Shown here one piece after another: positions 13,370-32,737 of a DNA stretch of 64,000 nucleotides. The stretch's first letter is position 1. Each line of letters starts with the position of its first letter. The DNA is from an uncultured Gammaproteobacteria bacterium (lineage in GTDB: Bacteria; Patescibacteriota; Microgenomatia; UBA8517; JACQJR01). The notes below the pieces were generated by a model. That model was given only the letters and a program-made list of their open reading frames with translations, was not told where the DNA came from and did no database searches. The DNA lies in NCBI GenBank assembly GCA_964442455.1, contig CAYTZB010000002.1:11159-75158 (forward strand), in the 5' to 3' direction. A program made the position numbers and the translations under genes.

Positions 13370-13400
13370 AGATTAGGAAATTTCTAATTTTTAAATTTTA
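13370..13400 (-). repeat. AT-rich AATTAGAAATTT motif copy abutting the LCP start codon
   Basis: The minus strand reads ...aattagaaatttcctaatcATG. Confidence 0.5.
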
Positions 13401-15116
13401 GGTTAATTTGGATATTTTTGTGTGTTCTGCTTTGATTGTTTTGAGTTTTGCTGCGACCTCTTCCCTATTTAATCCAAATGCTTGGAAAATACGATGCGCA
13501 ACAGAAAGCGCTGCTTCAAATTCCGGCTGAATAACCTCGCTAATACCCAAATTCATAAGTCGAGTTCTATCTTCATCCCGCTGCACACGCGAGATAATCT
13601 GTACTTTACTGCTCAGCTGTTTTGCATGCCCAATCACCAACTCTTGCGTATGTCGGTCGGGTATCGCGATAACCAAAAGACGTGCTTTATCAACTTCTGC
13701 AGCGGCGAGCACTTCCTTATCTCCCGGGTCACCATACACAAACGGAATGCCACGCTCGCTCAATTCTTTTAAAATTTCGTGATTATATTCAACAACTACA
13801 AACGGAATCTGTGCAAGTTGGCACGCTCTCCCAAGCCATGAGCCAAGACGGCCAAACCCGCACAGTACCACATGGTCCGAAATCTCTTCCTGTGCTCCGC
13901 CGGCTGGCTGATGTGCGCGACGGTCCATTCCAACAACACTAGAGAGTACTGGTAGCCGCAAGATAGGTCGGGTTCGCTCCCAAAACACGTGACGAGCAGC
14001 AAATAACAGCGGCGTGGCAAGAAGCGTAACCAGTGCTACTGAGACCGCAATTCCAATCTCCCTCTCGCTCAAAAGCCCTAACTCACCACCGAGGGCCGCA
14101 AGTAAGAATGAAAACTCTCCAATGTTTGCCAGTCCCAGGGCCGTCCAAAATGCCGTTTTCGCGTGATACCCAAACAAAAGAGTCACCAAAAGTGATATAA
14201 GGAACTTAAGTCCCAAGAAAAGGAACGCAAGGGTTAAAATCAGTTGCCAAGAATTAAGAAGAAATGAAGGGGAAAGGAGTGCCCCAAGTGACACAAAGAA
14301 CAAAATCATAAAAATCTCGCGCAAGGGTCGGACTTCCGCAAATACTGCGTGATTCTGTGATGTCTCGGACACAATAAGTCCTGCAAGAAATGCACCTAGA
14401 GCCGGCGAAATGCCCAAAATTTGTGAAAGAAAGGCAACGCCAAAAATAAATGTTACTACTGCCAAAAGGAAGAACTCCCGCGAGTTAGCCCTGACGACCA
14501 AGTTCATAAATTGAGGAACTGCAAATCGACCCGCAACGACCGCTCCCACCACAAGAAGTACAGCCCGGGAAGCTGCTTCTCCCATATCCAGCAGCCCTCC
14601 ATCCTTCCCCACGAGCGTTGGTAAAAGCACCACCATCGGAACAACCGCCAAGTCCTGCACCAACAACCACCCGGTTAAGATTTCGCCATGCAGCGTATCG
14701 AGTTCCGCCCGCTCTTGGAGAAGTTTAACAACCACTGCGGTTGAGGAAAGAGAAAAGCCGAACGCAAGGATAAGCGACGCGGCATGGCTTAAGCCGAATG
14801 AAGGTAAAATGACCAAACCCGCCACGACAGTCGTCAAGATTTGGATTATTCCCCCAGCGACCGCCACTCGAAATACACGAGTAAGCTGGGTAAAGGAAAG
14901 TTCAATGCCGACTGTAAATAACAGGAAAATGATACCGAGTTGTGCTAACGCGAATACACTTCCTCCCGCATGCAACACTCCCGAAAGAGCGGCAAATATG
15001 ACTCCAGAGATAATATATCCGGTCAAAAGTGGAAGGCGAAAAAGAATAGACGTCGCGCCGCCAAGGAGGGCTGCGGCGAGCACGAATCCTAAATCACGGA
15101 AAAGGGCAGATTCCAT
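13398..15116 (-). CDS. CPA2-family K+/H+ antiporter with C-terminal TrkA-N (RCK) domain (Kef-type)
   Basis: Twelve hydrophobic helices followed by a Rossmann motif, VVLCGFGRLGSWLGRA. Confidence 0.85.
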   Translation of the reverse strand: MESALFRDLGFVLAAALLGGATSILFRLPLLTGYIISGVIFAALSGVLHAGGSVFALAQLGIIFLLFTVGIELSFTQLTRVFRVAVAGGIIQILTTVVAGLVILPSFGLSHAASLILAFGFSLSSTAVVVKLLQERAELDTLHGEILTGWLLVQDLAVVPMVVLLPTLVGKDGGLLDMGEAASRAVLLVVGAVVAGRFAVPQFMNLVVRANSREFFLLAVVTFIFGVAFLSQILGISPALGAFLAGLIVSETSQNHAVFAEVRPLREIFMILFFVSLGALLSPSFLLNSWQLILTLAFLFLGLKFLISLLVTLLFGYHAKTAFWTALGLANIGEFSFLLAALGGELGLLSEREIGIAVSVALVTLLATPLLFAARHVFWERTRPILRLPVLSSVVGMDRRAHQPAGGAQEEISDHVVLCGFGRLGSWLGRACQLAQIPFVVVEYNHEILKELSERGIPFVYGDPGDKEVLAAAEVDKARLLVIAIPDRHTQELVIGHAKQLSSKVQIISRVQRDEDRTRLMNLGISEVIQPEFEAALSVAHRIFQAFGLNREEVAAKLKTIKAEHTKISKLT

Positions 15117-15124
15117 CTCCCTTA

Positions 15125-15937
15125 TTATGAAGTACGTGTACGAAGATATGCAAGCACATCCCGAAGCTCTTCTGGAGACTCGCTGGTGATAGTTACTCTC
15201 TTACCACTTATTGGGTGTGCGAACGTAATGCTTTGCGCATGCAAGAAAAGTCGAGGGCACCACTTTCTATCCTCCCTTGAGGTTTTGCGTCCCGCGTAAA
15301 ACTGATCTCCCACAATTGGATGACCAATTGATTTTAGGTGCACCCTCAGTTGGTGTGTTCTCCCTGTCTTTGGGTAAAGCTCCAAAAGAGAAAATTCTTC
15401 ACTTGAAATTGGAAACTGCTCGCCTCGCTGCGAAGCGGGGAAATTGGAAATTGTTTTATACTTCGTTTCCGCTTCCCTCCCGCCCGGCAATACTCCAAAC
15501 CTCTCTCTGTTCCATGGAAGCCTCCCAATAGGAACATTTATTACACCTTCCTCGGGCATTACTTTTCCATGAACTAAAGCGACATAGCTCTTTTGCACTC
15601 CCCGCTCTTTAAACTGCGCTTGTAAGTTCTCAAACGCTTCCGGCGTTTTTGCAACAAGAAGCACCCCACTCGTCTCTTTGTCTATTCGATGAACAATTCC
15701 GCTCCTTTTCACAAAGTCCGAAGGGGGTGACACGGGTGGAAGGGATCCCGACACGCGCGCAGGCGAACGCCGAGCACTGGCGGGAGGGATAACCCGGGGC
15801 AGGACCCCCGAGGACTCAACCCAATCCTGAAGCGTCTCCCCCTTTACCGACTCCGCCCTATTCACCACCATCCCAGCCGGTTTATCAACAACCAGAAGAT
15901 ATTTGTCTTCGTAGAGAATTCGCGGTTCCACGGACAC
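15125..15937 (-). CDS. RluA-family 23S rRNA pseudouridine synthase
   Basis: Catalytic HRIDKETSGVLLVAKT motif. Confidence 0.9.
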   Translation of the reverse strand: MSVEPRILYEDKYLLVVDKPAGMVVNRAESVKGETLQDWVESSGVLPRVIPPASARRSPARVSGSLPPVSPPSDFVKRSGIVHRIDKETSGVLLVAKTPEAFENLQAQFKERGVQKSYVALVHGKVMPEEGVINVPIGRLPWNRERFGVLPGGREAETKYKTISNFPASQRGEQFPISSEEFSLLELYPKTGRTHQLRVHLKSIGHPIVGDQFYAGRKTSREDRKWCPRLFLHAQSITFAHPISGKRVTITSESPEELRDVLAYLRTRTS

Positions 15938-16336
15938 TTACTTTTCTCTCTTCTTTTCGCAGGAGATACAAAGAGTCGCTTCGGGGTAAATCATAAGGCG
16001 ATCGGTATCAATCATTTGGCCACAATTTTCGCAAATTCCATATTTCCCAATCTTAATGCGTGCGAGAGCTTTCTTTGTTTGGACAATTTTCCTGTCAAGT
16101 TCCTGCTTCACAGCAGAAACACGCGCATGGCCAAATTGTACGGCCGCATCTGAATCAGGAGATGCGTTCTCTAGAAGTCGCTTTGTATCCTTAAATGGAT
16201 CTTGGGTTGACACTTCGTGCGCCCGCCGCTCCAAACGCGATAATTGCTGGGTTAAGAAGCTCCCTATGGGATGAAGCAGTTTTTGGGGAATCTGAATGAT
16301 GTTCTCTGTAGTTGTTCGAACAGCGCTTTTTTTCAT
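15938..16336 (-). CDS. DksA/TraR-family C4 zinc-finger protein
   Basis: C-terminal CENCGQMIDTDRLMIYPEATLCISC four-cysteine finger with an upstream coiled coil. Confidence 0.8.
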   Translation of the reverse strand: MKKSAVRTTTENIIQIPQKLLHPIGSFLTQQLSRLERRAHEVSTQDPFKDTKRLLENASPDSDAAVQFGHARVSAVKQELDRKIVQTKKALARIKIGKYGICENCGQMIDTDRLMIYPEATLCISCEKKREK

Positions 16337-16995
16337 CGTGCAAATACCCTCCTTATTCTTGACGTATCCCCCTCTATTCTTCCGGACTGAAAATATACCA
16401 CAATACTACAGACGAGCGCAAGAGACACGCCTGTTGCGATAGTCACCCCTCTCGACATCAAGAATAGCATATGTGGGAAAAGCAGCGCAATAGCTGCCCG
16501 TATTGCAAGATAAAGAATAACGGCGACCAGTGACGCAAATCCCACTTTCCCAGAAGGGTACCACAAAAAACTGCGATAGTATTTCCGCAGCATCCAAAAA
16601 AAGCACAACGCCCCAACGAGCAGTAGCGGTTCGGTAAAAGAATACCAGTAGAACTTCCCCGCACTGCGAAGTATGTTCAGTGAAAAAAAGAAAAGAAAGA
16701 CAAAAAGAGAAGGGACAACTGCCTCGAATACCTCAACAGGGCGCATCGCTAGTCTCTTGCTTCGGAAAAGCGCGAAAAGAAACACAAGAAAGAGTGCACC
16801 CAAAAGATGGTCGCGTCCAAAAATCCATCCCATGAGAGAGAAACCTAGTATTCCCCCAAGCGCAATAAGGAGTCCGAGAGGAAAAATGCGGGCATCCTCA
16901 TAATCATCCTTCAATAGCTCCCAAAAGATGAAGAAGGAGAACAATGCACCAACCGTAAGAATGAGGAATGTCGCAAAATTTGATAAATTTGACAT
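16333..16995 (-). CDS. hypothetical membrane protein
   Basis: Start trimmed to MSNLSNF, which is preceded on the minus strand by tggtataat and a taggag SD. This removes the apparent overlap with the ORF at 17048. Confidence 0.5.
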   Translation of the reverse strand: MSNLSNFATFLILTVGALFSFFIFWELLKDDYEDARIFPLGLLIALGGILGFSLMGWIFGRDHLLGALFLVFLFALFRSKRLAMRPVEVFEAVVPSLFVFLFFFSLNILRSAGKFYWYSFTEPLLLVGALCFFWMLRKYYRSFLWYPSGKVGFASLVAVILYLAIRAAIALLFPHMLFLMSRGVTIATGVSLALVCSIVVYFQSGRIEGDTSRIRRVFAR

Positions 16996-17047
16996 TATGC
17001 TCCTACCCATTATACCATTGAAATAACTCACACGAGTCCTTTTTTGT

Positions 17048-17509
17048 ATGGTTGAATTGCCACACGTATTGGTAGGAGTTGCAATTGCCTCAAAAGTCGG
17101 AAATCCGGCTCTTTCTCTACCTCTCGCACTCGCCAGCCATTTCGTGATGGACCTCATCCCCCATTGGAATCCTCCTATTTACCGGGAAATTAAAAAACTC
17201 GGACGGCTAAAACCAAATACCACTACGTTTATTTTCTTGGACAGTTTCGCGGCGCTTCTTATTGGATCGTTTATTGCGCTTCAAAGTTTGCCTGACCTAT
17301 CTCGTGCAATGATTATTTTACTTGGAGGATTCTTTGCAGTGTTACCTGACTTGTTGGAAGCACCGTATTATCTTATGAACGTCACCCACCCGCTTATCAC
17401 TCGTCTTGTTGAATTTGAACACGCACTGCAAGCGCGCGCACCGCTCATTCCTGGAATACTCACCCAGGTAGCCGTCTGCGCCGCAGCCGTGTGGTGGATC
17501 TTCACTTAG
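17048..17509 (+). CDS. putative membrane-bound metal-dependent hydrolase (YdjM/DUF457-like)
   Basis: 153-aa membrane protein beginning MVELPHVLVG with a conserved His. Weak family call. Confidence 0.4.
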   Translation: MVELPHVLVGVAIASKVGNPALSLPLALASHFVMDLIPHWNPPIYREIKKLGRLKPNTTTFIFLDSFAALLIGSFIALQSLPDLSRAMIILLGGFFAVLPDLLEAPYYLMNVTHPLITRLVEFEHALQARAPLIPGILTQVAVCAAAVWWIFT

Positions 17510-18077
17510 CTCGTTCGATGTACTCGCCTGTTCGTGTGTCGACACGTACGGCGTCTCCAACATTTATAAAAAGCGGTACTTTTATTTGAAGTCCACTCTC
17601 AAGTACAGCCGGTTTCCAGATATTTGTTGCGCTATTTCCCTTGACTCCGGGGCTGGTGTCGGTTACTTTAAGCGTTACTTTTGGAGGCAACTCTATAGTA
17701 AGGGGTACATCCACAGCATCGCCCGAGGACCAAAACAGTACATCCGCTTCTTGACCATCTTTTACGAAACGGATCTCACCTCCTGCAATTCTGCGCGGAA
17801 TTTCTACTTGCTCGAAACTTTGGGGATCCATAAATACGGCATTTTCCTCATCCTTATATAAATACTGAAGGCGTCGTTTAGTGGTTGGTGCTTCCTCTAC
17901 TCTTGTCCCTGAGTTAAATGTTTTTTCTTCAACTCTACCTGTTTTAAGATTGCGCACTTCCACCCTCACCGTTGCCCCACCCCGCCCAAGCTTGGTGTGG
18001 GTATATTTGACCACCACATAAGGAGTTCCTTCTATTTGAAAAGTAGTTCCTGCTCGTAAATCGGTAACGTCAATCAT
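17502..18077 (-). CDS. efp: elongation factor P
   Basis: MIDVTDLRAGTTFQIEGTPYVVVKYTHTKLGRGGATVRVEVRNLKTG. Start trimmed to the conserved methionine. Confidence 0.93.
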   Translation of the reverse strand: MIDVTDLRAGTTFQIEGTPYVVVKYTHTKLGRGGATVRVEVRNLKTGRVEEKTFNSGTRVEEAPTTKRRLQYLYKDEENAVFMDPQSFEQVEIPRRIAGGEIRFVKDGQEADVLFWSSGDAVDVPLTIELPPKVTLKVTDTSPGVKGNSATNIWKPAVLESGLQIKVPLFINVGDAVRVDTRTGEYIERAK

Positions 18078-18223
18078 ATTTAAAATTCGAAATTCGAATA
18101 TCGAAATTCGAAACAATATTCAAAAACAAAAATTTCCAAAATTCAAAACTTTTATTATTTATTTTTTATAATTTTTAATTTGTTTCGTGCTTCGTGCTTA
18201 GAATTTCGTGCTTCCGAGTTTTT

Positions 18224-19612
18224 TCAAAACTCGGTGCCGCTTGTAAAATTCCACCTTTTAATATGCAAAGCCGGCATGCGATTACTTCCGATTTCAAGTT
18301 CAAAACTAGAAAGCGGCACAGCAGTATTGGAAATTGCAGCAACACTGGACAACGCCTCCGGAATACTCTGATTAAAACGAAGATTTTTGACTCCACCAAC
18401 AATCTCTCCGTCCTTAATCAAAAACGTTCCATCTCGCGTCATACCGGTAATTGATAAATGCCTCGGATTCAAAACCCGCACATACCAAAACCGAGTTACA
18501 AGCAGTCCTTTTTTGACTCCCTTTATCATCTCTTCCATCCCCTTTTTACCCGGTTCTATTACTAAATGTAATGGCATCGGCCCACCTGTATTAGGTGCGG
18601 GCAACGCATGACCGGTATTAGGAGCGTCATGCTTCCCAGCATGGTAGGAGTCGTATACCAAATTTTTCAGCACTCCCTCTTTAATTATTTCGACTTTCCG
18701 CTTCGGAACTCCTTCAAAATCAAAAGGCATGGGAAATCCTTCCTCTGATATGGGATCGTCGTATATAGAAATGTTCTTACCTACCACCTTTTCGCCAAGA
18801 CGACCTGAAAAATAGCTTGCCTGCTCGTGATAAATTCGCGCATTTGGCCCAAGCCAAGCAAGAAATGCCATCATTTCATTCACTGCTTGAGGCTCAAGTA
18901 TGACATCCCACTCCCCGGGCTTAACTTCTAGCGGTTTCGTACCACGTTCAACTTTTTCTATTGCTTGTTGTGCAACATCCTCAGCGTTGATATCGGCAAC
19001 TTTTCTTCCTAATTGTGCACCAAATCCCGTTGAGTCTTTCCCAAGTAAAATTGTCGAAAGATCAGACGCAGAGCTCACATGATACGCCCATACACCATGA
19101 GAATTCGCCACTACTATCTCAGTTATCACGCTATCAAACGCGCCCGAAGCCGTAATCTTCTTTTCTCGTGCTTTTGTAATAATTGTTGACACCGCCGCTG
19201 CGCGCTCCTCTGGTGTTGCTTGGTGAACCCATTGTGCAACTTTTGGCAACTTTTGCGGCTTGGGTAAACTCTTAAAATGTGGATCTTCTCTTTGTAATTT
19301 TGCTAAACTTTCTGCTCGTCGCACAACATCACGAAGCGCAGAGGGCGCAAAACTATTTGTGGAGGCAACACCTATTCGTTTCCCAATCACCACACGCACA
19401 GAAATCCCTACATCTTCCCATGCAACATTTTGATGAATCTGAGAGTTCGCAAATCGGGTCAACCCATGATCCGTCACAAATAGCAAAACTTCTGTCTCAA
19501 GTTTACCTCTTCGAGCCTGAGCCTCAGAGCCGAAGGCCTGAGCTGGCCGAAGGGCACGCGATAAGCTCAAAACTTTCTTTGCAATTTCGTGTAATTTCTT
19601 TTCTCCAACCAT
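18224..19612 (-). CDS. pmbA: TldE/PmbA-family metalloprotease partner subunit
   Basis: 462 aa, TldD/PmbA fold, lacks the HExxxH motif. Pairs with the TldD gene at 20778-22325. Confidence 0.8.
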   Translation of the reverse strand: MVGEKKLHEIAKKVLSLSRALRPAQAFGSEAQARRGKLETEVLLFVTDHGLTRFANSQIHQNVAWEDVGISVRVVIGKRIGVASTNSFAPSALRDVVRRAESLAKLQREDPHFKSLPKPQKLPKVAQWVHQATPEERAAAVSTIITKAREKKITASGAFDSVITEIVVANSHGVWAYHVSSASDLSTILLGKDSTGFGAQLGRKVADINAEDVAQQAIEKVERGTKPLEVKPGEWDVILEPQAVNEMMAFLAWLGPNARIYHEQASYFSGRLGEKVVGKNISIYDDPISEEGFPMPFDFEGVPKRKVEIIKEGVLKNLVYDSYHAGKHDAPNTGHALPAPNTGGPMPLHLVIEPGKKGMEEMIKGVKKGLLVTRFWYVRVLNPRHLSITGMTRDGTFLIKDGEIVGGVKNLRFNQSIPEALSSVAAISNTAVPLSSFELEIGSNRMPALHIKRWNFTSGTEF

Positions 19613-19635
19613 ATTCTCACAATTATATCAAATTC

Positions 19636-19664
19636 TGGCAAAATTAAGCTTATTATGGTATAAT
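19636..19664 (+). promoter_or_regulatory. extended -10 promoter (TGGTATAAT) about 12 nt upstream of the ATG, implying a near-leaderless mRNA
   Basis: tggtataat at 19656-19664, ATG at 19676. Confidence 0.4.
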
Positions 19665-19675
19665 CGGGCCATAAA

Positions 19676-20812
19676 ATGAGTACTGAAGCTTTAGGACCAT
19701 CAAAGCCCGAACAAGTCGGTAGGGAACAGCGCGCGTTACTCCCCCAGCAAAGACTACTGGAGGCAGTATTTAGTGAGCCACAACGACCAATTTCCCCTGA
19801 AAAGGGAGAAGAGCTGGCCGAGACTGTTTCTGAAGTTTTAACAAGTACACTCAGGCCACGAGAAGCTGAAGTAATTATCCGTAGATTTGGACTTGCAAGT
19901 GGCACACCAGAAACAATAGCTCAAATAGCTAATGACTTTCAAAGAACAAAAGGGCGCATACGACAAATAGAAGAACGCGCACTTCGTAGGCTACGTTCGC
20001 CAAACAATAGAGACAAATTAAAAGAATATGTTGTTTTGTCTGAAGGCCCTGTTGCCTTCTCAATTGCCGGGCTACAACTTACTTACAGTGATTTAAAAGC
20101 AGTTACCAATGCTCGTCTGGAGGAACTAGGACCAGCAATTCATCTTGCTCGGTATGTTGCCTCGAGGATGGATAGAGAATGGAAAGATGTCGGAGAGCTT
20201 TTGACAGAGAATAGAGAACCCTTTTTAAGGCATCTCTCTGCTGAACAATTAAAACATCTTGGAGATGAACTTCGAAAAGTTTATGAAAGAGCCCAAGCTG
20301 GTTTTTATAAGGAACAGGAAGTCGTCAATCGCTTTCTCCCTTATTTAGAAATAAAACCCGATGTACTTGCTTTAATAGCATCACGCCCCATTGAATCCCT
20401 TGATCTCCCGACAGACATAGGGGGTGATCTCAAGAGACATGGCATTAATACTATTGGTGAAGTTCTTAATAGACCTAAACTCGATTTCCTACGTAATAGC
20501 TGGATAGTGGAGGGGATGGAATGGAGGCTTAAAGCATACATCGAAGCAGTTGAATTCGAAATAAATCCTCCTCCAGAATCGGAGGCGTTTAAAACACTTG
20601 CTGGTATTTCTACGGTTTGGATTAATAAGATAGTGGGAACTCGAGTGAGTTATGCATTAGCTCGTGGAAATATCTATACAGTGGCGCAGGTGCTTAACAT
20701 GACTGAGAAAGAATTATTAAGGGTAAAAGGATTTGGCCAGAAATCTCTTAATGAACTGAAGGCTGCAATAATAAGACTTACCACTTCACAACCCCCACTT
20801 TCACCTTCCTAA
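19676..20812 (+). CDS. novel DNA-binding protein: sigma-70 region-4 domain fused to two RNA polymerase alpha-CTD-like helix-hairpin-helix domains
   Basis: TLRPREAEVIIRRFGL...TIAQIANDFQRTKGRIRQIEERALRRLRSP resembles sigma-70 region 4.2. DLKRHGINTIGEVL and RVSYALARGNIYTVAQVLNMTEKELLRVKGFGQKSLNELKAAI resemble the RpoA alpha-CTD. Confidence 0.6.
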   Translation: MSTEALGPSKPEQVGREQRALLPQQRLLEAVFSEPQRPISPEKGEELAETVSEVLTSTLRPREAEVIIRRFGLASGTPETIAQIANDFQRTKGRIRQIEERALRRLRSPNNRDKLKEYVVLSEGPVAFSIAGLQLTYSDLKAVTNARLEELGPAIHLARYVASRMDREWKDVGELLTENREPFLRHLSAEQLKHLGDELRKVYERAQAGFYKEQEVVNRFLPYLEIKPDVLALIASRPIESLDLPTDIGGDLKRHGINTIGEVLNRPKLDFLRNSWIVEGMEWRLKAYIEAVEFEINPPPESEAFKTLAGISTVWINKIVGTRVSYALARGNIYTVAQVLNMTEKELLRVKGFGQKSLNELKAAIIRLTTSQPPLSPS

Positions 20813-22410: not shown

Positions 22411-22496
22411 GCCCGGGTGGCGGAATGGTTTACGCGCACGACTCAAAATCGTGTGGTCTTACGACCATGTGGGTTCGACTCCCGCTCCGGGCACCA
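22411..22496 (+). tRNA. tRNA-Leu (anticodon CAA), long variable arm, encoded CCA
   Basis: 7-bp acceptor stem GCCCGGG/UCCGGGC, anticodon stem CACGA/TCGTG with loop CTCAAAA, variable arm TGGTCTTACGACCA, T-arm GGGTTCGACTCCC, discriminator A followed by CCA. Confidence 0.85.
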
Positions 22497-22502
22497 GGAG
22501 AA

Positions 22503-23222
22503 ATGCCCAAACCCAAACTGCCGCTCAAAACCTTTTCATGGTCTCCTAACTTAGCTTATATTATTGGTCTCTTAGTTACAGATGGAAATCTCTCAAACGA
22601 TGGCAGACATATAATTATGCGATCTTCAGACAGAGACCTTCTTGAAACTTTCAATTCTTGTCTCGATTTAAAGAATAAAATTTCGGAAACAAAAAATAAT
22701 GGTTTCGCAAAACGACCAAGTTACAGAGTTCAATTTGGTAATATCCAATTCTATAAATGGCTAGTTAAAATAGGACTGGCACATAAGAAAACATATAATG
22801 TTGGGGAAATAAAAATTCCCGATAAATACTTTAGAGACTTTTTGAGAGGGCATCTAGATGGAGATGGTACAATTCTAACCTATGATGATAGGTATAATAA
22901 ATACCGAGGGAGAACATATGTAAATCTTAGGGTTTTCCTTTATTTTATTTCTGCAAGCCGTACTCACATTGACTGGCTTATAAGGAAAATCCGAGATCTT
23001 ACTAAAGTAAAAGGATCACTCACATGTAGTAAACCTGTAAAATCTAACCGAGTGCCTATGTGGAGGATAAAATTTTCAAAAAAAGAGGCTGTAAAAATAT
23101 TGCGATGGATGTATTATCAAGAAAATCTTCCTTGCTTGGAAAGAAAAAGAGAGCTCGTGAGGAAGATTTTTAACCTTGTAGTAAATGAAAAGAGGAGAAA
23201 GTATTCCAGAATTACAAGTTAA
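22503..23222 (+). CDS. LAGLIDADG-family homing endonuclease (two motifs)
   Basis: LAYIIGLLVTDGNL and FLRGHLDGDGTI motifs. The ATG at 22503 follows an AGGAG site, 7 nt after the tRNA 3' end. Confidence 0.8.
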   Translation: MPKPKLPLKTFSWSPNLAYIIGLLVTDGNLSNDGRHIIMRSSDRDLLETFNSCLDLKNKISETKNNGFAKRPSYRVQFGNIQFYKWLVKIGLAHKKTYNVGEIKIPDKYFRDFLRGHLDGDGTILTYDDRYNKYRGRTYVNLRVFLYFISASRTHIDWLIRKIRDLTKVKGSLTCSKPVKSNRVPMWRIKFSKKEAVKILRWMYYQENLPCLERKRELVRKIFNLVVNEKRRKYSRITS

Positions 23223-24012: not shown

Positions 24013-24021
24013 ACTCGAATT

Positions 24022-25353
24022 TTACTCCTTTGCCCTTTTTGTTTCTCGTGGGTAAAAACGAATACGGTCGCCGCGGAAGAAGAGTTTCACTTGTCCCAAG
24101 GGACCGTTTCTGTGCTTGGCAATATCAAGATTAATATTTTCTACATCATCCTCGTCTTCACGCCAGATAAACATCACCACGTCAGCATCCTGCTCAATCG
24201 CTCCTGACTCCCGAAGATCAGCAAGTTGCGGCCGTCGCGTTCCCCGCTGTTCAACTGCCCGAGAAAGTTGAGAAATGGCAAGGATTGGAATTTTGAGCTC
24301 CCGTGCTAAATTCTTCAAGCCTTGCGAAATCTCCGACACCTCTTGCACCCTGTTCTCAAGTTTTCTACCTGCAACTAACTGTAAATAATCAACAATTAAA
24401 AGTTCTATTCCCTGTTCAACCTGCAGCCGCCGCCCCTTCGTTCTCATCTCAAGCACCGTGAGTGCGGGCGTGTCGTCAATAAAGAGCGGCGCCTCAGCAA
24501 GCATTCCCATCGCATCGGAGAGTCGCGTAAAATCCTCATCGGTGAGCCGTCCGGTCTTCAGTCGCCATGCATCAATATCCGCTTGCGAGACAAGGAGGCG
24601 GTCTACTAATTCCTCTTTGCTCATCTCAAGCGAGAAAATTCCCACCGATTTTTTTTCATTCACTGCAACATGCTGGGCAATATTGAGGGCGAGTGCGGTT
24701 TTCCCAATACCAGGACGTGCCGCGAGGATAACTAAGTTGCTGCGTTGAAATCCTGCCAAGGTATTGTCAAGGTCGGAAAAACCCGATGGTACTCCGCGAA
24801 GTCCCCCGGGCGACTTGTGTAGCTCATCCAGCCGATCGAAACTCTCGGCAAGTGCCTCACGAACGGGCATGAAACTTCGTGCTAAATGACGCTGGGTTAG
24901 CGAGAAAACCTCTTGCTCTGCGCGGTCTAAGAGTTCCTCAGCCGAGGTTCCCTCGTCAAATGCAAGCTCAACCAACTTTGTTGCCGCACTCATTAATGTC
25001 CGTTTTGTTGCCACATCTTTGACAATTTTCCCATAATGTTCAACATGCGCAGCAGTTGGCACTTGATTTACCAACTCACCCAAGTAACCCACTCCCCCAA
25101 CTTGGCGCAATGCCCGATTTTTCTTGAGTTTTTCAGCAACTGTTAAAACGTCAATAGGAACTCGTTCTTCATAGAGGTCAAGGATTGCGGTAAAAATCTT
25201 TGCATGGCGCTCATCGTAGAAGTGATGAGGTGCAAGAAATTCAGCAACCGAGATGACCGCATCTTTATCAAGAAGCAACGCCCCCAGCACCGAGATTTCC
25301 GCTTCTCGGGAGTGAGGTGGGATTTTAACTGTTTGGGAACCTCCGTTGGCCAT
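24022..25353 (-). CDS. dnaB: replicative DNA helicase DnaB
   Basis: 443 aa with Walker A (ARPGIGKT), DnaB N-domain and RecA-like core. No intein. Confidence 0.93.
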   Translation of the reverse strand: MANGGSQTVKIPPHSREAEISVLGALLLDKDAVISVAEFLAPHHFYDERHAKIFTAILDLYEERVPIDVLTVAEKLKKNRALRQVGGVGYLGELVNQVPTAAHVEHYGKIVKDVATKRTLMSAATKLVELAFDEGTSAEELLDRAEQEVFSLTQRHLARSFMPVREALAESFDRLDELHKSPGGLRGVPSGFSDLDNTLAGFQRSNLVILAARPGIGKTALALNIAQHVAVNEKKSVGIFSLEMSKEELVDRLLVSQADIDAWRLKTGRLTDEDFTRLSDAMGMLAEAPLFIDDTPALTVLEMRTKGRRLQVEQGIELLIVDYLQLVAGRKLENRVQEVSEISQGLKNLARELKIPILAISQLSRAVEQRGTRRPQLADLRESGAIEQDADVVMFIWREDEDDVENINLDIAKHRNGPLGQVKLFFRGDRIRFYPRETKRAKE

Positions 25354-25359
25354 ATACTA

Positions 25360-25392
25360 AAATTGACCTAATTAACCTAATTTCTAATTTTG
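25360..25392. repeat. AT-rich intergenic motif (TTGACCTAATTAACCTAATTTCTAATTTT) upstream of the dnaB start
   Basis: Shares CTAATTAACCTAA with the 29824 and 32645 copies, and the AATTAGAAATT core in reverse complement. Confidence 0.5.
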
Positions 25393-25455
25393 AGCAAAAG
25401 CGAAAAACAAGCTCTGCTTATTGACCTAAATTGGGGTATTTGGAAATTGGGATTT

Positions 25456-25482
25456 GATTAGAAATTAGTAATTAGAAATTTT
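25456..25482. repeat. AT-rich motif GATTAGAAATTAGTAATTAGAAATTTT
   Basis: Same family as 29866-29898 and the reverse complement of 32619-32647. Confidence 0.5.
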
Positions 25483-26238: not shown

Positions 26239-26679
26239 TTGGTATGTAGGGCCTTTACCATGCGTAAAGAGGTACTTATTGCGATACTACTGGGAGCTAC
26301 ATTGGGACTTGCAATCGCATTCGGGGTATATAGAGCAAACCTCGCACTCCGATCTACCCCCACTACTACTCAAGCAACACCTGCACCAACATCCGCTCCT
26401 TCTTCTAGTACACTTACTATCACTCAGCCAGAGGACGAGGCGCTCGTTGATACCGACAGCATCACTGTTGAAGGTAAAACAGCACCTAACGCAACAGTGG
26501 TAATTACTAGTCCCGTTGACGAGGTCACTGCGCTCGCCGATAACAGCGGCACATTTCGTGCAGAGGTAAAATTGGAACCAGGGGCAAATGCACTTTTGGT
26601 AACTTCATTTGGGGAAGACAATAACTCTGTTGAAAAAGAGCTCACCATAACGTATTCAACGGAGTTTAAGAAAGAATAA
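26239..26679 (+). CDS. hypothetical secreted protein (Ig-like/β-rich?)
   Basis: N-terminal TM/signal segment followed by a Thr/Pro-rich linker. Confidence 0.45.
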   Translation: MVCRAFTMRKEVLIAILLGATLGLAIAFGVYRANLALRSTPTTTQATPAPTSAPSSSTLTITQPEDEALVDTDSITVEGKTAPNATVVITSPVDEVTALADNSGTFRAEVKLEPGANALLVTSFGEDNNSVEKELTITYSTEFKKE

Positions 26680-26681
26680 TT

Positions 26682-27416: not shown

Positions 27417-27427
27417 AATCGAAAAAA

Positions 27428-27904
27428 ATGGCTAATGTACCCCCAAAAGCTACTACCAGGGTAGCACTGAACAATAGTCTAATCGCTATTACCATCGGCG
27501 TATTTTTTCTAACAATCAATTTAAAACAAGAACTTCTACTACCAAGAGTTTTGATTTTGCAGTTTATTTTGGCAATACCACTGCTTTTTACTTCATCGCT
27601 AGCATACTCAAAGGTTGGTTATAGGGACAAAATAGAAAGGTGGAATAAACTGGCATGGATAACATTTATACTAGGCTATGCGTTTATACTGAATGTGATA
27701 GGTATTTTCGTGGGGAATATTATCGGTACCTTAGAGTCTATTGTATTTTTTATAATTACCTGGGTTCTGGTAATAATATACTCTTTAGTTGATCTAAGCT
27801 ACAAACAAACTGTATTACGAGAAAGATTGGCTAAGGACAGTATTTTTATTCTAATACAACTTATTCTGGGAATGCTTCCGACTTTAGGAGTAATCTCTTT
27901 CTAA
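27428..27904 (+). CDS. hypothetical membrane protein
   Basis: Four hydrophobic helices. Confidence 0.45.
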   Translation: MANVPPKATTRVALNNSLIAITIGVFFLTINLKQELLLPRVLILQFILAIPLLFTSSLAYSKVGYRDKIERWNKLAWITFILGYAFILNVIGIFVGNIIGTLESIVFFIITWVLVIIYSLVDLSYKQTVLRERLAKDSIFILIQLILGMLPTLGVISF

Positions 27905-27936
27905 ATCCTTAAAAACAAGCTATCATAAAGTTAACT

Positions 27937-28857
27937 ATGCAAAAAGCACCGCCGACACCGAAGGGATTTCGCGATATTCAACCAGAACTTGCGAAAAAAC
28001 GTCGAGGCGTCATTGGAAAAATTGTTGAAGTTTTAGAGGAGTTTGAATTCGTCCCCATAGAAACACCAACTATTGAATTTGCAGAGACCTTAAAGGGAAA
28101 GTATGGTGAGGAAGAGCGGCTTATCTATCAATTCAAAGACCGTGGTGGAAGAGAGTTGGCCTTGCGGTATGACCTGACTGTCCCACTTGCTCGTTATGTA
28201 GCAACGTATCATCCTCCACTTCCATTTCGCCGATACCAAATAGGGCAAGTATTCCGAGGAGAAAATCCTCAAAAAGGCAGATTTAGAGAATTTACTCAGC
28301 TTGACTTTGATACTGTGGGATCGGAAAGAATGGTAGAGGATACAAAGATTATCGCAGCAGCCCTGAAAATTGCCCGACATCTTGGTCTTAAAAATGCCAA
28401 GATGTTCATCAATCACAGAGTTAATTTCGAAGGTATACCAATAGATTTTGTAAGAGCAATTGACAAGATTTACAAGATAGGAATGGATGGAGTCAAAAAA
28501 GAACTCTTAGCTAAAAAATACGAAGAAAAAGACATTAATAACTATATTGAAAAGGTTACAGAGAAGCTAAGAGAAAATATCAACACTCCCAGCTTTGATC
28601 TTTTCAAGATTAATACCCAGCTACAAGATGAATATAAACTTACACTTGGACAAGATTATGACTTTGATGCAAATTTGGCGAGAGGTTTAGATTATTACAC
28701 GGGAACAATCTTTGAATTAAAACCAAACAGCAACCCTGAAAGTCTCACTATCGGCGCGGGTGGCAGATATGATAATTTAATCGGAATGTTTTCTAAAAAA
28801 CAGGTTCCCGCTGTTGGATTTTCATTCGGAGTTGACCGCCTCATCGAAGTGATATAG
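27937..28857 (+). CDS. histidyl-tRNA synthetase-like catalytic core without anticodon-binding domain (HisZ/HisRS paralog)
   Basis: Class II motifs: ...LALRYDLTVPLARY, RRYQIGQVFRGENPQKGRFREFTQLDFDTVG, GAGGRYDNL. Only 306 aa, against about 420 aa for HisRS. Confidence 0.75.
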   Translation: MQKAPPTPKGFRDIQPELAKKRRGVIGKIVEVLEEFEFVPIETPTIEFAETLKGKYGEEERLIYQFKDRGGRELALRYDLTVPLARYVATYHPPLPFRRYQIGQVFRGENPQKGRFREFTQLDFDTVGSERMVEDTKIIAAALKIARHLGLKNAKMFINHRVNFEGIPIDFVRAIDKIYKIGMDGVKKELLAKKYEEKDINNYIEKVTEKLRENINTPSFDLFKINTQLQDEYKLTLGQDYDFDANLARGLDYYTGTIFELKPNSNPESLTIGAGGRYDNLIGMFSKKQVPAVGFSFGVDRLIEVI

Positions 28858-28898
28858 TTATTACTCATATATTCATATATGAATAGAAACATGCCCTC

Positions 28899-29822
28899 AT
28901 GACCAACTCACGACTTACTGCCTACGTAATGCTCTTTTTTACAGCCGCAATTTGGGGTATTGCAACACCAGTTATTAAATTTACTCTTCATGATTTTTCA
29001 CCTGTTTTATTCTTAACCTACCGCTTTTTTCTTACCTCTCTTGTTCTTTTACCAATTCTGGGATTCACCCATCATGATTTCAATATTAAAAATCATCTTA
29101 ACAAACGGGAGTTGTTCGCTTTTGTACTCGTTGCCCTTTTGGGGAGCACCATTAATTTAGGTCTCCTCTTTTGGGGACTTGAGCACACTACCGCAATTTT
29201 TGCTTCACTCCTTAGCGACATCAGTCCTATTTTCGTTGTTGTTGCAGGCGTAATTTTTCTGAAAGAACGAATTAGCAGCTTAGAAAAAATCGGTCTTGGT
29301 ATTGCGTTCACCGGAGCAAGCGTACTTACATTCTCGCCTTCTATTGCCGACGGAAATTCAACTGTGTTTGGTAACCTTTTAATTCTACTTGCTAACTTTG
29401 CCTGGGTAGCCTATGTCATCCTCGCAAAAATAGAGCTCAAGCAACGTGTTTCTCCACTTTTGCTCGTAACGAGTTCTTTTCTTTTAGGGTTTATCACTAT
29501 GTTGCCGCTTGCTATTTGGCAAACAGGATCACTTGCTGCTCTTATTTCATTTATTGCACAACAACCACTCGCTTCTCATGCGGGCGTATGGTATATGGCC
29601 ATCATCTCAGGTGCTCTTGCATACTGGCTTTTCCAGGAAGGGCAACGAAGAGTTGAGGCAGGCGAAGCAACAATTTTTATGTATCTTTCGCCTCTTTTTG
29701 CAATTCCACTTTCAGTCATCTGGCTCCATGAAACAATTACACTCCCGATTATTATTGGCGCAACAATTACAGTGATAGGAGTGGTAATTGCTGAATACAA
29801 GAGAAGAAGGAAATCAAATTAA
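28899..29822 (+). CDS. EamA/DMT-family transporter
   Basis: Ten TM helices arranged as two EamA repeats. Confidence 0.8.
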   Translation: MTNSRLTAYVMLFFTAAIWGIATPVIKFTLHDFSPVLFLTYRFFLTSLVLLPILGFTHHDFNIKNHLNKRELFAFVLVALLGSTINLGLLFWGLEHTTAIFASLLSDISPIFVVVAGVIFLKERISSLEKIGLGIAFTGASVLTFSPSIADGNSTVFGNLLILLANFAWVAYVILAKIELKQRVSPLLLVTSSFLLGFITMLPLAIWQTGSLAALISFIAQQPLASHAGVWYMAIISGALAYWLFQEGQRRVEAGEATIFMYLSPLFAIPLSVIWLHETITLPIIIGATITVIGVVIAEYKRRRKSN

Positions 29823-29865
29823 CCTAATTAACCTAAATTTAGACATTAGGTCATTGAGATTTATT

Positions 29866-29898
29866 TAGAAATTAGGAATTAGAATAATTAGAAATTGA
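29866..29898 (+). repeat. AT-rich motif TTAGAAATTAGGAATTAGAATAATTAGAAATTG upstream of rpmE
   Basis: Near-identical to the reverse complement of the 29-mer at 32619-32647 and 58687-58715. Confidence 0.55.
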
Positions 29899-29932
29899 AT
29901 TTAGCCTTAGTTTCTGGTAATATATACTTACT

Positions 29933-30256
29933 ATGAAAGCAGCAATTCATCCCCAATGGTATTCGGAGGCGCGAGTTACGTGTGGTAGCTGCGGAACAAC
30001 GTTTACCGTGGGATCAACGGTTCCAGAAATCCACGTTGAAGTATGTTCCAATTGCCATCCATTCTTTACTGGCGAGGCAAAGTTTATTGACACAAAGGGG
30101 CGCGTTGACCGATTCCGAGAACTGCAAGAAAAGAAAGTTTCGCAAATCTTGTCAAAGAAAGAAAAAAGAAAACTAAAAAGGGAAAAGAGAATTAAAGAAG
30201 AGCTTGAACGACCGGAAAGCTTGAAAGAACTACGAAAAGTGGCAAATAAAAAGTAA
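29933..30256 (+). CDS. rpmE: 50S ribosomal protein L31 with Lys-rich C-terminal extension
   Basis: [10 protein letters not shown]...CGSCG...[10 protein letters not shown] zinc-ribbon L31, plus a [12 protein letters not shown] tail. Confidence 0.9.
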
Positions 30257-30309
30257 CATGTAACACGTTTTCATCCTTCCTGTTACTTGCCAACCATTAC
30301 CTACTAACC

Positions 30310-31017
30310 ATGAATGATAATCAAGTCCAAACCATATATCTTGAAACTCGCCCAGCTGCAGGGGGTGATGAAGCCTCAATATGGGCTTCTGATTTACTCC
30401 GTATGTACACGCGATTTGCAGGCAGATGTGGATGGAAGGCAACCCAAGTGGACGACAATGTAATTAAAATCTCTGGCACAAATGTTTTTGGGGAGTTAAA
30501 ACACGAGTCAGGGGTTCATAGAGTCCAAAGAATTCCGGAAACAGAACGCAGAGGAAGAATTCATACCTCCACTGCAACAGTCGCTGTCCTCCCAGAGATT
30601 GCTGAAAAGGATATTTCAATTAATCAAAATGACCTGGATTGGCAATTTTACAGAGCATCGGGACACGGTGGTCAAAATGTTCAAAAAGTTTCAACAGCGG
30701 TCCGTTTGCGACATATTCCTACCGGCATCGTTGTCACTGCTCAACAAGAACGCTTCCAAGAACAAAATAGAAAAATCGCTCTAAGCTTGCTTCGAGCGAA
30801 GTTATACGAGCGAGAAGAAGAGGAAAAAATGCGTACCATTGCAGGATACCGATCAGTTATTGGTCGTGGCATGCGTGCAGAAAAAATTAGAACGTATAAT
30901 TTCCCCCAAAGCAGAATAACAGATCACCGAATCGGCAAATCCTGGGGAAATTTAGAAGATGTTATGGAAGGAAATTTAGATAAGATTACAACTGCACTTT
31001 CTACTTACACTGGTTGA
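30310..31017 (+). CDS. class I peptide chain release factor lacking N-terminal domain 1 (RF1-like PxT and GGQ present)
   Basis: RVQRIPETERRGRIHTST (PxT-type tripeptide) and SGHGGQNVQKV. Only 235 aa. No upstream frame for a frameshifted N-terminal domain. Confidence 0.85.
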   Translation: MNDNQVQTIYLETRPAAGGDEASIWASDLLRMYTRFAGRCGWKATQVDDNVIKISGTNVFGELKHESGVHRVQRIPETERRGRIHTSTATVAVLPEIAEKDISINQNDLDWQFYRASGHGGQNVQKVSTAVRLRHIPTGIVVTAQQERFQEQNRKIALSLLRAKLYEREEEEKMRTIAGYRSVIGRGMRAEKIRTYNFPQSRITDHRIGKSWGNLEDVMEGNLDKITTALSTYTG

Positions 31018-31445
31018 GTTTGGTTAACAAGAGGTAGGGATATTCTCCGGGTCATCTTGATCTCATCAAGGTTCAGATTATATTCTTCGTATAAACTATC
31101 GATATAAAAACCAATAAGCATTCTACGGATAGAGTGACCCCTGCCTTTCGAGGCACGCAATACCAGAACTTTTGGTACAATCCTACCCTCTTCATCTTTT
31201 TTTAGACCATTTCTGAAAACTACCCTTTGGAGTAAAAGAATCCCACCGGCTCCTTCAATTAATTCACAACTTACTCCTATATCAGTCTCTCCCAGTTGAA
31301 TTCCTTGGCCCTCCCTTAATCTAATAGCACGAATCCCATCGGAAATTACTGGACTTACTATACCAATTCGTTGCAATAATGCTACTGTATCGTCTCTATT
31401 TAGATATTCTATATTCCGTTGAATTAATCCTTCTTTCAAACTCAT
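31005..31445 (-). CDS. hypothetical protein (146 aa)
   Basis: ORF only. Its 3' end overlaps the RF gene by 13 nt, convergently. Confidence 0.4.
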   Translation of the reverse strand: MSLKEGLIQRNIEYLNRDDTVALLQRIGIVSPVISDGIRAIRLREGQGIQLGETDIGVSCELIEGAGGILLLQRVVFRNGLKKDEEGRIVPKVLVLRASKGRGHSIRRMLIGFYIDSLYEEYNLNLDEIKMTRRISLPLVNQTQPV

Positions 31446-31451
31446 TTTTGA

Positions 31452-32618
31452 TTATTCCCCTGACTCAACAAGGGTTGTAGAAACTGTGAGGGCTTGACCA
31501 CCTGTCTGCGCAGGCAGGTCGCGCCACAATTCAATGCTCACTCTATCCCCAACTTTTCTCTTATTAATCAAGGAGGCCAAACCACCAGTCTCTTCTTTTA
31601 TCGCTTCTCCATCAAGTTTTGTCAAGATATCATTTTCCTCTATTCCCGCTGTCTTGGCAGGACTTCCTTCAACTACCTCAACGACATAAGCACCTTGAGG
31701 GACTTCATTCAAAATTGCTGCTTCACCACTTATCATCTGATAACGAACGCCTAAAAATGGACGTGAGAAACGACCGGTTTGCTCAAAGTTTTGGATTGAG
31801 TCCTTGACAATGTTTATTGGAATAGCAAATCCCACATTTTCCGCCCCAGCAGCCACCGCCACATTAACACCTATAACTTGTCCGGCTGAATTAAGAAGTG
31901 GCCCTCCCGAATTTCCCGGATTGATTGCCGCGTCTGTTTGAATAACATTATCCAAACGCTCAACGAACCCTTCAAAAGGCGTCCCCGCAGTAATTCCCCG
32001 TCCCAGCCCAGATATAACACCGGTTGTAACGGTGTGGCGGAATTCACCAAGTGCGGTACCGATTGCAATCACGAACTGTCCGACTTTAAGGTTACTTGAG
32101 TCGCCTAAATCAACAGGTTTTAGTCCTGAGGTGGCCGTTGGACTTACTTTAAGGATTGACAAGTCATTGGCCGGGTCCCGATAAATTTTTTCAACAACAA
32201 ATTCCTTATCATCTTTTGTAATCACCTTATATTGCACGCCTGATTCGGAAACCACATGTTTATTAGTAACAATAAGGCCGTCAACGGAAATAATAAACCC
32301 TGTCGCAATATCCTGTTTGCCTCCTTCCTCTCTTACTCCGAGTCCCCCAAAAGGAGAAAACTGAAGAACCTTTCTGCGGGGCGACTCCCGGGAAATGGTA
32401 ACAACCGACGGAGATACTCTTTCTGCAACATCAATCACTACCGATTCCTCGGTCAATATTTTTTGCTCTACCTCCCCGGTACGAAGACCCCCACTGCGAG
32501 GAAACAGTTTATCAAGGGGTTTAATACCAAATAAACGATCGGCAATCGCTCCTCCGAAAATGGAAGCAAGAACTACCACACCAACTGCAATACCTATTAG
32601 GAAACGACGGACTCTCAT
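31452..32618 (-). CDS. HtrA/DegP-family serine protease (trypsin domain + PDZ)
   Basis: GNSGGPLLNSAGQVIGVN active-site region, C-terminal PDZ domain, N-terminal TM segment. Confidence 0.9.
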   Translation of the reverse strand: MRVRRFLIGIAVGVVVLASIFGGAIADRLFGIKPLDKLFPRSGGLRTGEVEQKILTEESVVIDVAERVSPSVVTISRESPRRKVLQFSPFGGLGVREEGGKQDIATGFIISVDGLIVTNKHVVSESGVQYKVITKDDKEFVVEKIYRDPANDLSILKVSPTATSGLKPVDLGDSSNLKVGQFVIAIGTALGEFRHTVTTGVISGLGRGITAGTPFEGFVERLDNVIQTDAAINPGNSGGPLLNSAGQVIGVNVAVAAGAENVGFAIPINIVKDSIQNFEQTGRFSRPFLGVRYQMISGEAAILNEVPQGAYVVEVVEGSPAKTAGIEENDILTKLDGEAIKEETGGLASLINKRKVGDRVSIELWRDLPAQTGGQALTVSTTLVESGE

Positions 32619-32647
32619 AAAAATTTCTAATTATTCTAATTTCTAAT
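32619..32647. repeat. 29-nt AT-rich motif AAAATTTCTAATTATTCTAATTTCTAATT abutting the htrA start codon
   Basis: Identical 29-mer at 58687-58715. A reverse-complement variant lies at 29866-29898. Confidence 0.65.
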
Positions 32648-32737
32648 TAACCTAATCAAATCCCAATTTCTCAAATTTCTAAAATTAGTCATTGGTCATT
32701 ATTTAGAAATTAGGTCAATTAGAGCAATTAGGTTAAT

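Follow-up and report, generated by a model that had tools for sequence, protein, structure and literature searches.

A stretch of 64,000 nt of DNA (the window: positions 11,159 to 75,158 of contig CAYTZB010000002.1, assembly GCA_964442455.1), from an uncultured bacterium placed by GTDB in the Patescibacteriota, carries recurrent AT-rich blocks built on the sequences AATTAG and CTAATT. These blocks are probably gene-less miniature copies of a modular palindromic insertion element, which is widespread in the Patescibacteria, or candidate phyla radiation (CPR), and belongs to a mobile family resembling the intervening sequences (IVSs) of rRNA genes. Insertion is at AATT sites beside stop codons, and the copies occupy the spacer from the stop codon of one gene to the start codon of the next.

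Enrichment of AATTAG and CTAATT in spacers

The preliminary description of this DNA quoted a number of AT-rich strings, all of which are present where it placed them, and saw in them more structure than generic AT-richness. The counts bear this out. The sequence AATTAGRAATT occurs 9 times in the window, compared with 0.37 ± 0.61 times in 100 dinucleotide-preserving shuffles, none of which reached 9, and CTAATTNNNCTAA has 8 matches where the shuffles predict 0.24. When only spacers are considered (4250 nt, 36% GC), AATTAG and CTAATT together are found 24 times, against 6.2 ± 2.4 and a maximum of 13 in AT-matched intergenic shuffles, so the enrichment survives the comparison with a shuffled background that had been proposed as a check. 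Their density is 5.65 per kb in spacers and 0.54 per kb in coding DNA. This roughly tenfold depletion in coding DNA, together with the low density, makes a DNA uptake sequence unlikely.

Every copy of AATTAGRAATT is confined to five short gene-to-gene spacers, located at 13370-13397, 25354-25480, 29823-29932, 32619-32737 and 58681-58779. TTAG/CTAA is found 8, 10, 10 and 6 times in four spacers, compared with 0-4 times elsewhere. The matches before dnaB (25360-25392) and at 13370-13400 lie on the minus strand, in the sense orientation of the genes downstream of them. The fifth strong site, 58681-58779 between dnaX and ybaB, lies beyond the range of the preliminary description, whose weaker site at 9575-9600 is indeed weak, with three TTAG at 7-nt spacing.

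Architecture of the element

The comparison set consisted of the window and 119 fetched loci (934 kb), and arrays were defined as at least three TTAG/CTAA at 7-10 nt spacing. A total of 227 arrays were found, compared with 5 in shuffles, and within them the spacing was 9 nt in 431 cases and 7 nt in 191. The order of the two arms is nearly invariable: CTAATT was followed by AATTAG 75 times and the reverse was seen once. On the sense strand of the flanking genes, the plan consists of CTAATT units at the upstream stop codon, a variable centre, and AATTAG units shortly before the next ATG. The left arm contains 2-5 tandem units, the right arm is its mirror image, and the centre often holds CCAAT/ATTGG-type units. 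The 9-bp unit can be written CTAATT-R-N-Y, with R and Y each conserved at 97%, and the 7-bp unit is CTAATTT. Provision of stop codons in all frames was rejected as a purpose of the units, since the 9-nt period holds the TAGs in a single frame; pairing of the TTAGG/TTAGA units as Shine-Dalgarno or anti-Shine-Dalgarno sequences was likewise discarded, as no convincing complementarity was apparent by eye.

AATT forms the right terminus in 117 of 129 elements and the left terminus in 109. The core is 51-185 bp long, with a median of 108. Compact elements (n=41, in spacers of at most 180 nt) extend from stop codon to start codon, with 3-28 nt, typically 8-15 nt, left between their right arm and the ATG. 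Copies are found in either orientation relative to genes. In size and structure, with no open reading frame (ORF), inverted ends and five copies per 64 kb, the element resembles a miniature inverted-repeat transposable element (MITE).

The hairpin potential of 41 elements is strong, with a median z of -3.9 against shuffles and z < -2 in 98% of them. The sense and antisense strands fold alike (mean minimum free energy, MFE, -27.7 and -28.1 kcal/mol; Wilcoxon p = 0.58), and G-U pairs are not skewed between them (122 vs 144). In a duplex model of motif-selected elements, the arms of the same element pair no better than arms mixed across elements. In-register complementarity of the variable triplets was also not raised over shuffled partners in a sample unbiased with respect to the second arm, and was if anything lower (6 vs 12.3 ± 3.1; 12 vs 15.6 ± 3.6). 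Tightly restricted triplets without covariation between the arms suggest that the units themselves are recognised and that a perfect stem has not been selected for.

Empty sites in related genomes

A search with the HtrA-like protein of the window led to syntenic contigs whose homologues are 93% (L360), 92% (L361, L362), 78% (L363, L364) and 72% (L365) identical, and a second search with DnaX led to L373, from the same sample as L360, and L374. None of these contigs contains arms anywhere, while the 10 kb of the window orthologous to L360-L365 holds three elements. Between the genes of the S41 peptidase and the HtrA-like protease, the spacer is 119 nt in the window, compared with 6 nt in L360, 10 nt in L363 and L364, 5 nt in L365, and a 4-nt overlap of the genes in L361 and L362. 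Between the gene of a metallo-beta-lactamase (MBL)-fold hydrolase and dnaB, 127 nt in the window correspond to 4 nt in L360-L362 (CATAATTTCGTG in L360 and L361). The spacer between the EamA transporter gene and rpmE, the gene of ribosomal protein L31, is 110 nt in the window and 38 nt in L360 and L361, where the rpmE promoter/leader is conserved: the junction reads GCGCTAATTGAATCTAAAG..., and the downstream TTGAAT...TGnTAnAAT...ATG is kept with no element. The dnaX/ybaB spacer measures 99 nt in the window, 31 nt without units in L373, and 38 nt in L374, which retains only the ancestral part, ...AATATTACATGTTAATATTTAAATTAACCTA-ATG.

All four junctions that were compared proved empty in relatives whose flanking proteins are about 90% identical, and recognisable empty sites of this kind are expected of a MITE. 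At the S41/HtrA, MBL/DnaB and EamA/L31 junctions, the empty site has a single AATT at the stop codon (TAATT or TAAATT) and the filled site has AATT at both element ends; this AATT is palindromic and part of the unit. Because a sister lineage and two outgroups are empty at S41/HtrA, parsimony favours a gain in the lineage of the window.

More distant genomes show the same lack of positional conservation. In a syntenic locus of Roizmanbacteria, whose proteins are 50-56% identical to those of the window, the S41 and HtrA genes are not separated by an element; a second genome lacks one before dnaB, and a third carries one before recR, a position occupied by a normal promoter in the window. Conservation among relatives, which the preliminary description had proposed to examine, is thus wanting: relatives with about 50-93% identical flanking proteins lack the blocks at the same junctions. 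Its alternative suggestion of decayed miniature repeat elements is half right, for these are miniature repeats, but well-formed modular palindromes with recent insertions in the lineage are not decayed.

A separate observation concerns the MBL/DnaB junction of L365 (18829-18956), where a 128-nt spacer of GTACCAC/GTGGTAC-type units with a hairpin z of -3.2 is located. A G+C-richer dialect of units appears to have independently invaded the junction that holds an AATTAG element in the window.

Long forms with a PF05635 gene

In the fetched loci, 13 of the 18 PF05635 genes (identified by Pfam and NCBIfam) lie between a CTAATT array on the 5' side and an AATTAG array on the 3' side, and the optional central S23p/23S_rRNA_IVP ORF of IVSs is therefore present in the family. 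These 13 long forms have the same inner CCAAT/ATTGG-type units as the gene-less elements, and because both arms and inner units are common to them, the gene-less elements look like internal-deletion derivatives. The remaining PF05635 homologues are flanked by inverted arrays of other 7-9-nt units, namely TCAATAA, TCAGTAA, TTTGAAAT, CAAATGA and GTTTAA. Four homologues obtained through protein similarity alone, independently of the motif (L369-L372), likewise have inverted arrays on either side, made of other 8-nt units. By sequence, the long-form protein matches a single PDB entry, 2rld, an uncharacterised protein.

The type of protein follows the type of repeat. Proteins between CTAATT arms form one cluster, with 67% identity within it and 47% to the others. 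L112 and L121 each contain one gene of each dialect, and each gene clusters with its own dialect, so the association of protein and dialect is not simply taxonomic.

The window itself holds a long element of another dialect at 52941..53398 (-), around a 125-aa four-helix-bundle gene at 52974-53351 (PF05635 23S_rRNA_IVP, TIGR02436), with ATTCAAT/TCAATAA-type units upstream of the gene and TGATTCATTGAATTATTGA downstream. This cassette is wholly absent from L373, in which the same flanking genes (88-90% identical proteins) are 28 nt apart; the gene-carrying form, here in the TCAAT dialect, is thus also insertion-polymorphic. Elsewhere in the window, a solo heptamer array (AATTGGC, AATTGAT, AATTGAA, AATTGAA) at 35158-35235 (-) lies upstream of gene 34747-35157, just before its TATACT box and ATG. 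It has the appearance of a further dialect and resembles the arms that flank the second PF05635 gene in L112.

Distribution in CPR and copies in rRNA genes

The exact 20-mer AATTAGAATAATTAGAAATT, common to three window copies, occurs in at least 119 contigs of a species-representative genome collection, and almost all of them are Patescibacteria/CPR by record title, from which all taxon names of comparison loci are taken. The groups listed include Saccharibacteria, Berkelbacteria and Microgenomates-type lineages (Curtiss-, Roizman-, Woese-, Levyi- and Gottesmanbacteria), as well as Parcubacteria-type lineages (Yanofsky-, Doudna-, Vogel-, Portnoy- and Sungiibacteria, and Paceibacterota). In most matches the flanks have the same architecture; the exceptions are a handful in non-CPR records, which look like chance. 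Nine loci in metagenome-assembled genomes titled 'uncultured Gammaproteobacteria' carry typical CPR-type elements (L011, L012, L015, L031, L067, L072 and L078-L080), and L015 carries a CTAATT-type PF05635 cassette as well; these labels may be wrong. The window itself is assigned to a Candidatus Microgenomates bacterium through one of its proteins, which is 100% identical to a protein so labelled at NCBI.

A motif-neutral pattern of three CTAATT at 9-nt spacing gave 133 listed arrays in metagenome contigs, 62 of them with a partner arm, compared with none among the 124 arrays listed in viral contigs (IMG/VR). The 20-mer has only two matches in viral contigs, both without the architecture. A phage origin was rejected on these grounds, the two viral matches of the 20-mer being due to chance. 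Searches of the literature by sequence string and keywords returned no description of the element, and an exact look-up of the window YbaB protein gave no match.

Three loci found through the 20-mer carry copies in rRNA genes. In L133, which shares its contig with L020, the 4-nt apical loop at about 831-835 of the 16S model has given way to a 157-nt insert; in L070, a 134-nt insert replaces a 4-nt loop at about 166-170 of the 23S model; and L085 has a copy in its 23S gene. These inserts are intervening sequences in the classical sense. The window has no rRNA gene, and insertion at helix tips is seen in the element family elsewhere. The inverted termini and extended stem of IVSs are also present, with stems interrupted at the variable triplets, and no RNase III signature was found in the window. 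Taken together, the element appears to be a gene-less relative of rRNA intervening sequences. The rRNA genes of CPR bacteria contain many short ORF-less insertions of unknown nature, some others having a 23S_rRNA_IVP ORF (PMC11270868), and the same family accounts for some of these unexplained insertions.

Evaluation of alternative explanations

Strict constraint on the R-N-Y triplet beyond the needs of pairing, the lack of arm covariation, which fits recognition of units by a protein, and a right arm that ends so close to the ATG would all suit operator sites of a global regulator or nucleoid-associated protein that reads AATTAG half-sites and controls the downstream genes, as the preliminary description had suggested. 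Such sites, however, are absent at orthologous junctions at both about 90% and 50-56% protein identity, stand in either orientation to genes, and occur inside rRNA genes and the S10/spc, infC-rpmI-rplT, pheST and rplU-rpmA clusters. Nor do their targets form a functional class, for which enrichment had been proposed as a check: the downstream genes are dnaB, rpmE, htrA and ybaB in the window and those of L6, L2, L20, pheT, L27, recR and murG elsewhere, with no function in common. An operator family is therefore quite improbable.

Somewhat less improbable, although still unlikely, is punctuation between cistrons that is selected by the host and arose in place without mobility, as a bidirectional terminator, a promoter or an AU-rich translation-initiation region. 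The stop-to-start extent of the compact elements agrees with it, as do the lack of Shine-Dalgarno motifs in the following genes and a centre that often reads AAATAAATCCCAAT...ATTGGGATTTATTTAG, terminator-like in shape. Full elements show a mild preference for co-directional gene pairs (91 co-directional, 7 convergent and 6 divergent, against 601, 93 and 88 in the background), which is also in its favour; yet with about 12 each expected, convergent spacers are not enriched over divergent ones and there is no terminator-like excess. A consensus scan of the elements called no terminator-like site and found promoter-like sites at the level of shuffled sequence. A canonical promoter or terminator was rejected for want of any element-specific signal, the position of TTGACC being variable and no fixed -35/-10 geometry being present. 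Elements also lie within the conserved clusters S8/L6 and L23/L2 (S10/spc), IF3/L35/L20 (infC-rpmI-rplT), PheS/PheT and L21/L27 (rplU-rpmA), whose S8-L6, L23-L2, IF3-L35-L20, PheS-PheT and L21-L27 genes are co-transcribed across bacteria, and even inside rRNA genes. Relatives manage with spacers of 4-38 nt at the same junctions, and the same complex palindrome is unlikely to have arisen independently in place at five of them.

A strand-specific structured non-coding RNA, such as a leader, a small RNA or a riboswitch-like element, would explain the strong folding described above, but both strands fold equally well, G-U pairs are balanced, same-element arms pair no better than mixed ones and no compensatory change of triplets is seen. 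At the gathering score, Rfam 15 reports only a tRNA in the window, and the sole hit with E <= 1 is a spurious plant miRNA model. Such an RNA is very improbable. Tandem short repeats and palindromes in CPR also recall the tandem interspaced guide RNA (TIGR) arrays of TIGR-Tas systems, known from CPR bacteria and their phages, in which box C (RUGAUGA) and box D (CUGA) flank pairs of spacers next to a tas gene. Here, no RTGATGA and a single CTGA are present in all five elements, which are dispersed singly between housekeeping genes. TIGR arrays were rejected on these defining motifs, and their probability is close to nil.

Several points weigh against an IVS-like insertion element. Most comparison loci were picked by the motif itself, and genes in them were called by a longest-ORF rule. 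Target-site duplication is inseparable from the element's own AATT ends, and the case for gain over loss is one of parsimony, drawn from one sister lineage and two outgroups. Since the variable triplets are not complementary in register, the stem is interrupted and only putatively a substrate of RNase III. No transposase or known mobility enzyme was linked to the element in the loci searched; the only gene found between the same arms encodes the PF05635 four-helix bundle, which is not a known transposase, so the parent typical of a MITE is missing. This protein is not known to have any activity, including an enzymatic one in mobility. Finally, the copies in the window are mosaics of common units with only 27-33-nt blocks in common, and are not near-identical as in a young MITE burst. 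Either the units turn over fast by slippage or recombination, or the element spreads in a manner unlike classical cut-and-paste.

Possible mechanism and implications

Transcripts of the element would fold into a long AU-rich hairpin, and RNase III may cut it out or cut through it, by analogy with known IVSs. Removal of this kind would account for the tolerance of insertions in rRNA and within essential operons, and after cutting only very short leaders would remain on the downstream genes. For dnaB, rpmE, htrA and ybaB, the consequence would then be processing or punctuation of the mRNA and not control through a dedicated factor. The four-helix-bundle protein may recognise the repeat units and help the element to spread, a putative partner role suggested by the co-variation of protein subfamily and repeat type.

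A more far-reaching interpretation is possible, though we regard it as doubtful: that the PF05635 protein and its arrays form an unrecognised class of mobile elements, inserted at rRNA helix tips and in stop-to-start spacers throughout CPR, which sheds gene-less miniatures. Spread of such a class could be mediated by RNA, with the hairpin released by RNase III as the intermediate. If true, this would at last assign a function to a protein family that has been without one ever since the first descriptions of rRNA IVSs.

The family is a non-coding sequence conserved across a whole bacterial superphylum, down to one exact 20-mer in at least 119 contigs. Insertion of 'intervening sequences' is not restricted to rRNA: it also occurs between protein-coding genes and inside essential operons, with differences between close relatives. 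The co-variation of protein subfamily and dialect provides a direct hypothesis for the function of S23p/PF05635. For annotation of CPR genomes, the elements explain many odd AT-rich spacers, and they may be useful both for tracing recent genome change and as candidate sites of neutral insertion.

Individual copies and their neighbourhood in the window

Flanking genes of the window copies were assigned by Pfam. The two longest copies, with hairpins that span the whole spacer, are the full elements at 25354..25480 (-) and 32619..32738 (-). The first lies between the MBL-fold hydrolase gene (stop at 25481) and dnaB (ATG at 25353), reads TAA-AATTTCTAATTACTAATTTCTAATCAAATCCC ... AAAATTAGAAATTAGGTTAATTAGGTCAATT-TTAGTAT-ATG in gene sense, and covers both sub-sites of the preliminary description, 25360-25392 and 25456-25482; its hairpin has an MFE of -25.1 kcal/mol and z = -3.9. 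The second lies between the S41 peptidase gene (stop 32738-32740) and the HtrA-like protease gene (ATG 32616-32618), reads TAA-ATTAACCTAATTGCTCTAATTGACCTAATTTCTAAATAATGACCAATGAC ... GGGATTTGATTAGGTTAATTAGAAATTAGAATAATTAGAAATT-TTT-ATG in sense, and has a hairpin of -26 kcal/mol and z = -4.2. A full but short element at 29816..29896 (+), between the EamA transporter gene and the conserved promoter/leader of rpmE, reads AAATTAACCTAATTAACCTAAATTTAGACATTAGGTCATTGAGATTTATTTAGAAATTAGGAATTAGAATAATTAGAAATT and contains the EamA stop codon (29820-29822) inside its first unit; it folds weakly, with z = -1.7.

The remaining copies are reduced. The partial element at 58681..58755 (-), between dnaX and ybaB, has one left unit (AAATTGACCTAA) and a four-unit right arm (TTTTAGGAATTAGAAATTAGAATAATTAGAAATT) that ends 9 nt before the ybaB ATG; it contains an exact 29-mer common to 32620-32648 and shows no significant fold against shuffles. 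A minimal or collapsed copy at 13373..13409 (-) separates a Na+/H+ exchanger gene from gene 12368-13369, which encodes an unknown protein and was labelled LCP in the preliminary description, a label for which Pfam gives no hit. It consists of a left-type unit (AAATTAACCTAA), whose TAA is the exchanger stop codon, AATTTAA, and a right-type unit (AAATTAGAAATT), followed by TCCTAATCT-ATG, and it has no fold signal. The weak relative at 9575..9600 (+), TTAGATATTAGACATTAGAAG, lies between convergent genes, comprises three inner-type ATTAGAN heptamer units after CTAAAAAATTTAG, and likewise gives no fold signal.

Two of these spacers contain other inverted repeats. The palindrome AATATTACATGGTAATATT lies directly 3' of the dnaX stop codon in the window (58750-58770) and in L374 (7655-7690; DnaX 54% identical), and is separate from the AATTAG arm of the dnaX/ybaB copy. 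A perfect 8-bp inverted repeat, CCCTATAG-TAAA-CTATAGGG, is located at the start of a spacer at 9505-9530, immediately 3' of the short ORF 9266-9499; the weak TTAG array lies about 50 nt downstream of it.

The possible density of elements is shown by locus L021, in which two full elements (4553-5003) flank the small rpmI (L35) gene between infC and rplT, and a third lies between pheS and pheT within the same 8 kb. At many genes of the window, such as 18224-19612, 19676-20812, 34747-35157 and 55980-56597, a TATAAT-like box is found 6-11 nt before the ATG, often with TTGACA 16-18 nt before the box and with few Shine-Dalgarno motifs. This arrangement suggests that leaderless or very short-leader mRNAs are common in the source organism.

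Other repeats in the window are of different kinds. Gene 3947-6535 begins with 34 nt, ATG included, that recur 269 nt upstream within a 337-nt spacer and so form a direct repeat (3678-3711 and 3947-3980) with 97% identity. Four copies of a 108-nt unit occur at 39253-39789 inside a 543-aa ORF (39099-40730), two of them adjacent and two 216 and 321 nt further, 62-75% identical to the first. The 83-nt tRNA at 22411-22493 (Rfam, 54.6 bits) overlaps the beginning of the called ORF 22425-23222, the start of which is probably wrong.

Comparison with known systems

Correia elements of Neisseria and the ERIC/IRU elements of enterobacteria are ORF-less sequences of about 100-150 bp with inverted ends, which are present in many copies in spacers and are co-transcribed into hairpin transcripts; processing by RNase III is documented for Correia elements. 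The present element is likewise small, ORF-less, multicopy and spacer-borne, with inverted ends. It differs in that the only gene associated with it encodes a four-helix-bundle protein and no transposase-encoding parent is known, and in that its copies are mosaics of units conserved across phylum-level lineages rather than within one genus.

Repetitive extragenic palindromes (REPs) are single palindromes of 20-40 nt with a GTAG head, and REPtrons carry RAYT, an HUH Y1 transposase. Like REP/BIME sequences and REPtrons, the element family provides short extragenic palindromes between co-transcribed genes and a small protein gene flanked by inverted repeat copies, in which the type of repeat travels with the type of protein. 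Unlike them, it is built of arrays of 7/9-bp units, and the flanked protein is PF05635 and not an HUH Y1 transposase. PF05635, the family of the long-form protein, resembles Avd, an accessory protein of diversity-generating retroelements (PMC10053308). No reverse transcriptase and no template or variable repeats, however, accompany the elements examined, in which the proteins stand alone between repeat arrays.

The closest likeness is to the rRNA IVSs of Coxiella, Leptospira, Salmonella and others (PMC4990558). RNase III excises the IVS of Coxiella, which contains an S23p ORF with a variable number of tandem heptamer repeats next to it, and excision without ligation is known for the IVSs of both Coxiella and Salmonella (PMC4990558). 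Differences are nevertheless evident: the window copies and most others lie between protein-coding genes, many of them inside conserved operons; the CTAATT/AATTAG arms are arrays of a defined 7/9-bp unit conserved across the superphylum; and the element is polymorphic between close relatives, with excision by RNase III only putative here. What the elements have in common with IVSs are inverted termini that form a long stem, insertion at the tips of 16S and 23S helices (L133/L020, L070 and L085) and an optional central gene for a PF05635 four-helix bundle, beside which the tandem heptamers of Coxiella are found. A patchy distribution and a suspected mobile origin are shared both with IVSs and with the insertions in CPR rRNA genes (PMC11270868), and an old proposal already held the Coxiella IVS to be mobile, with its ORF serving mobility (PMC4990558).

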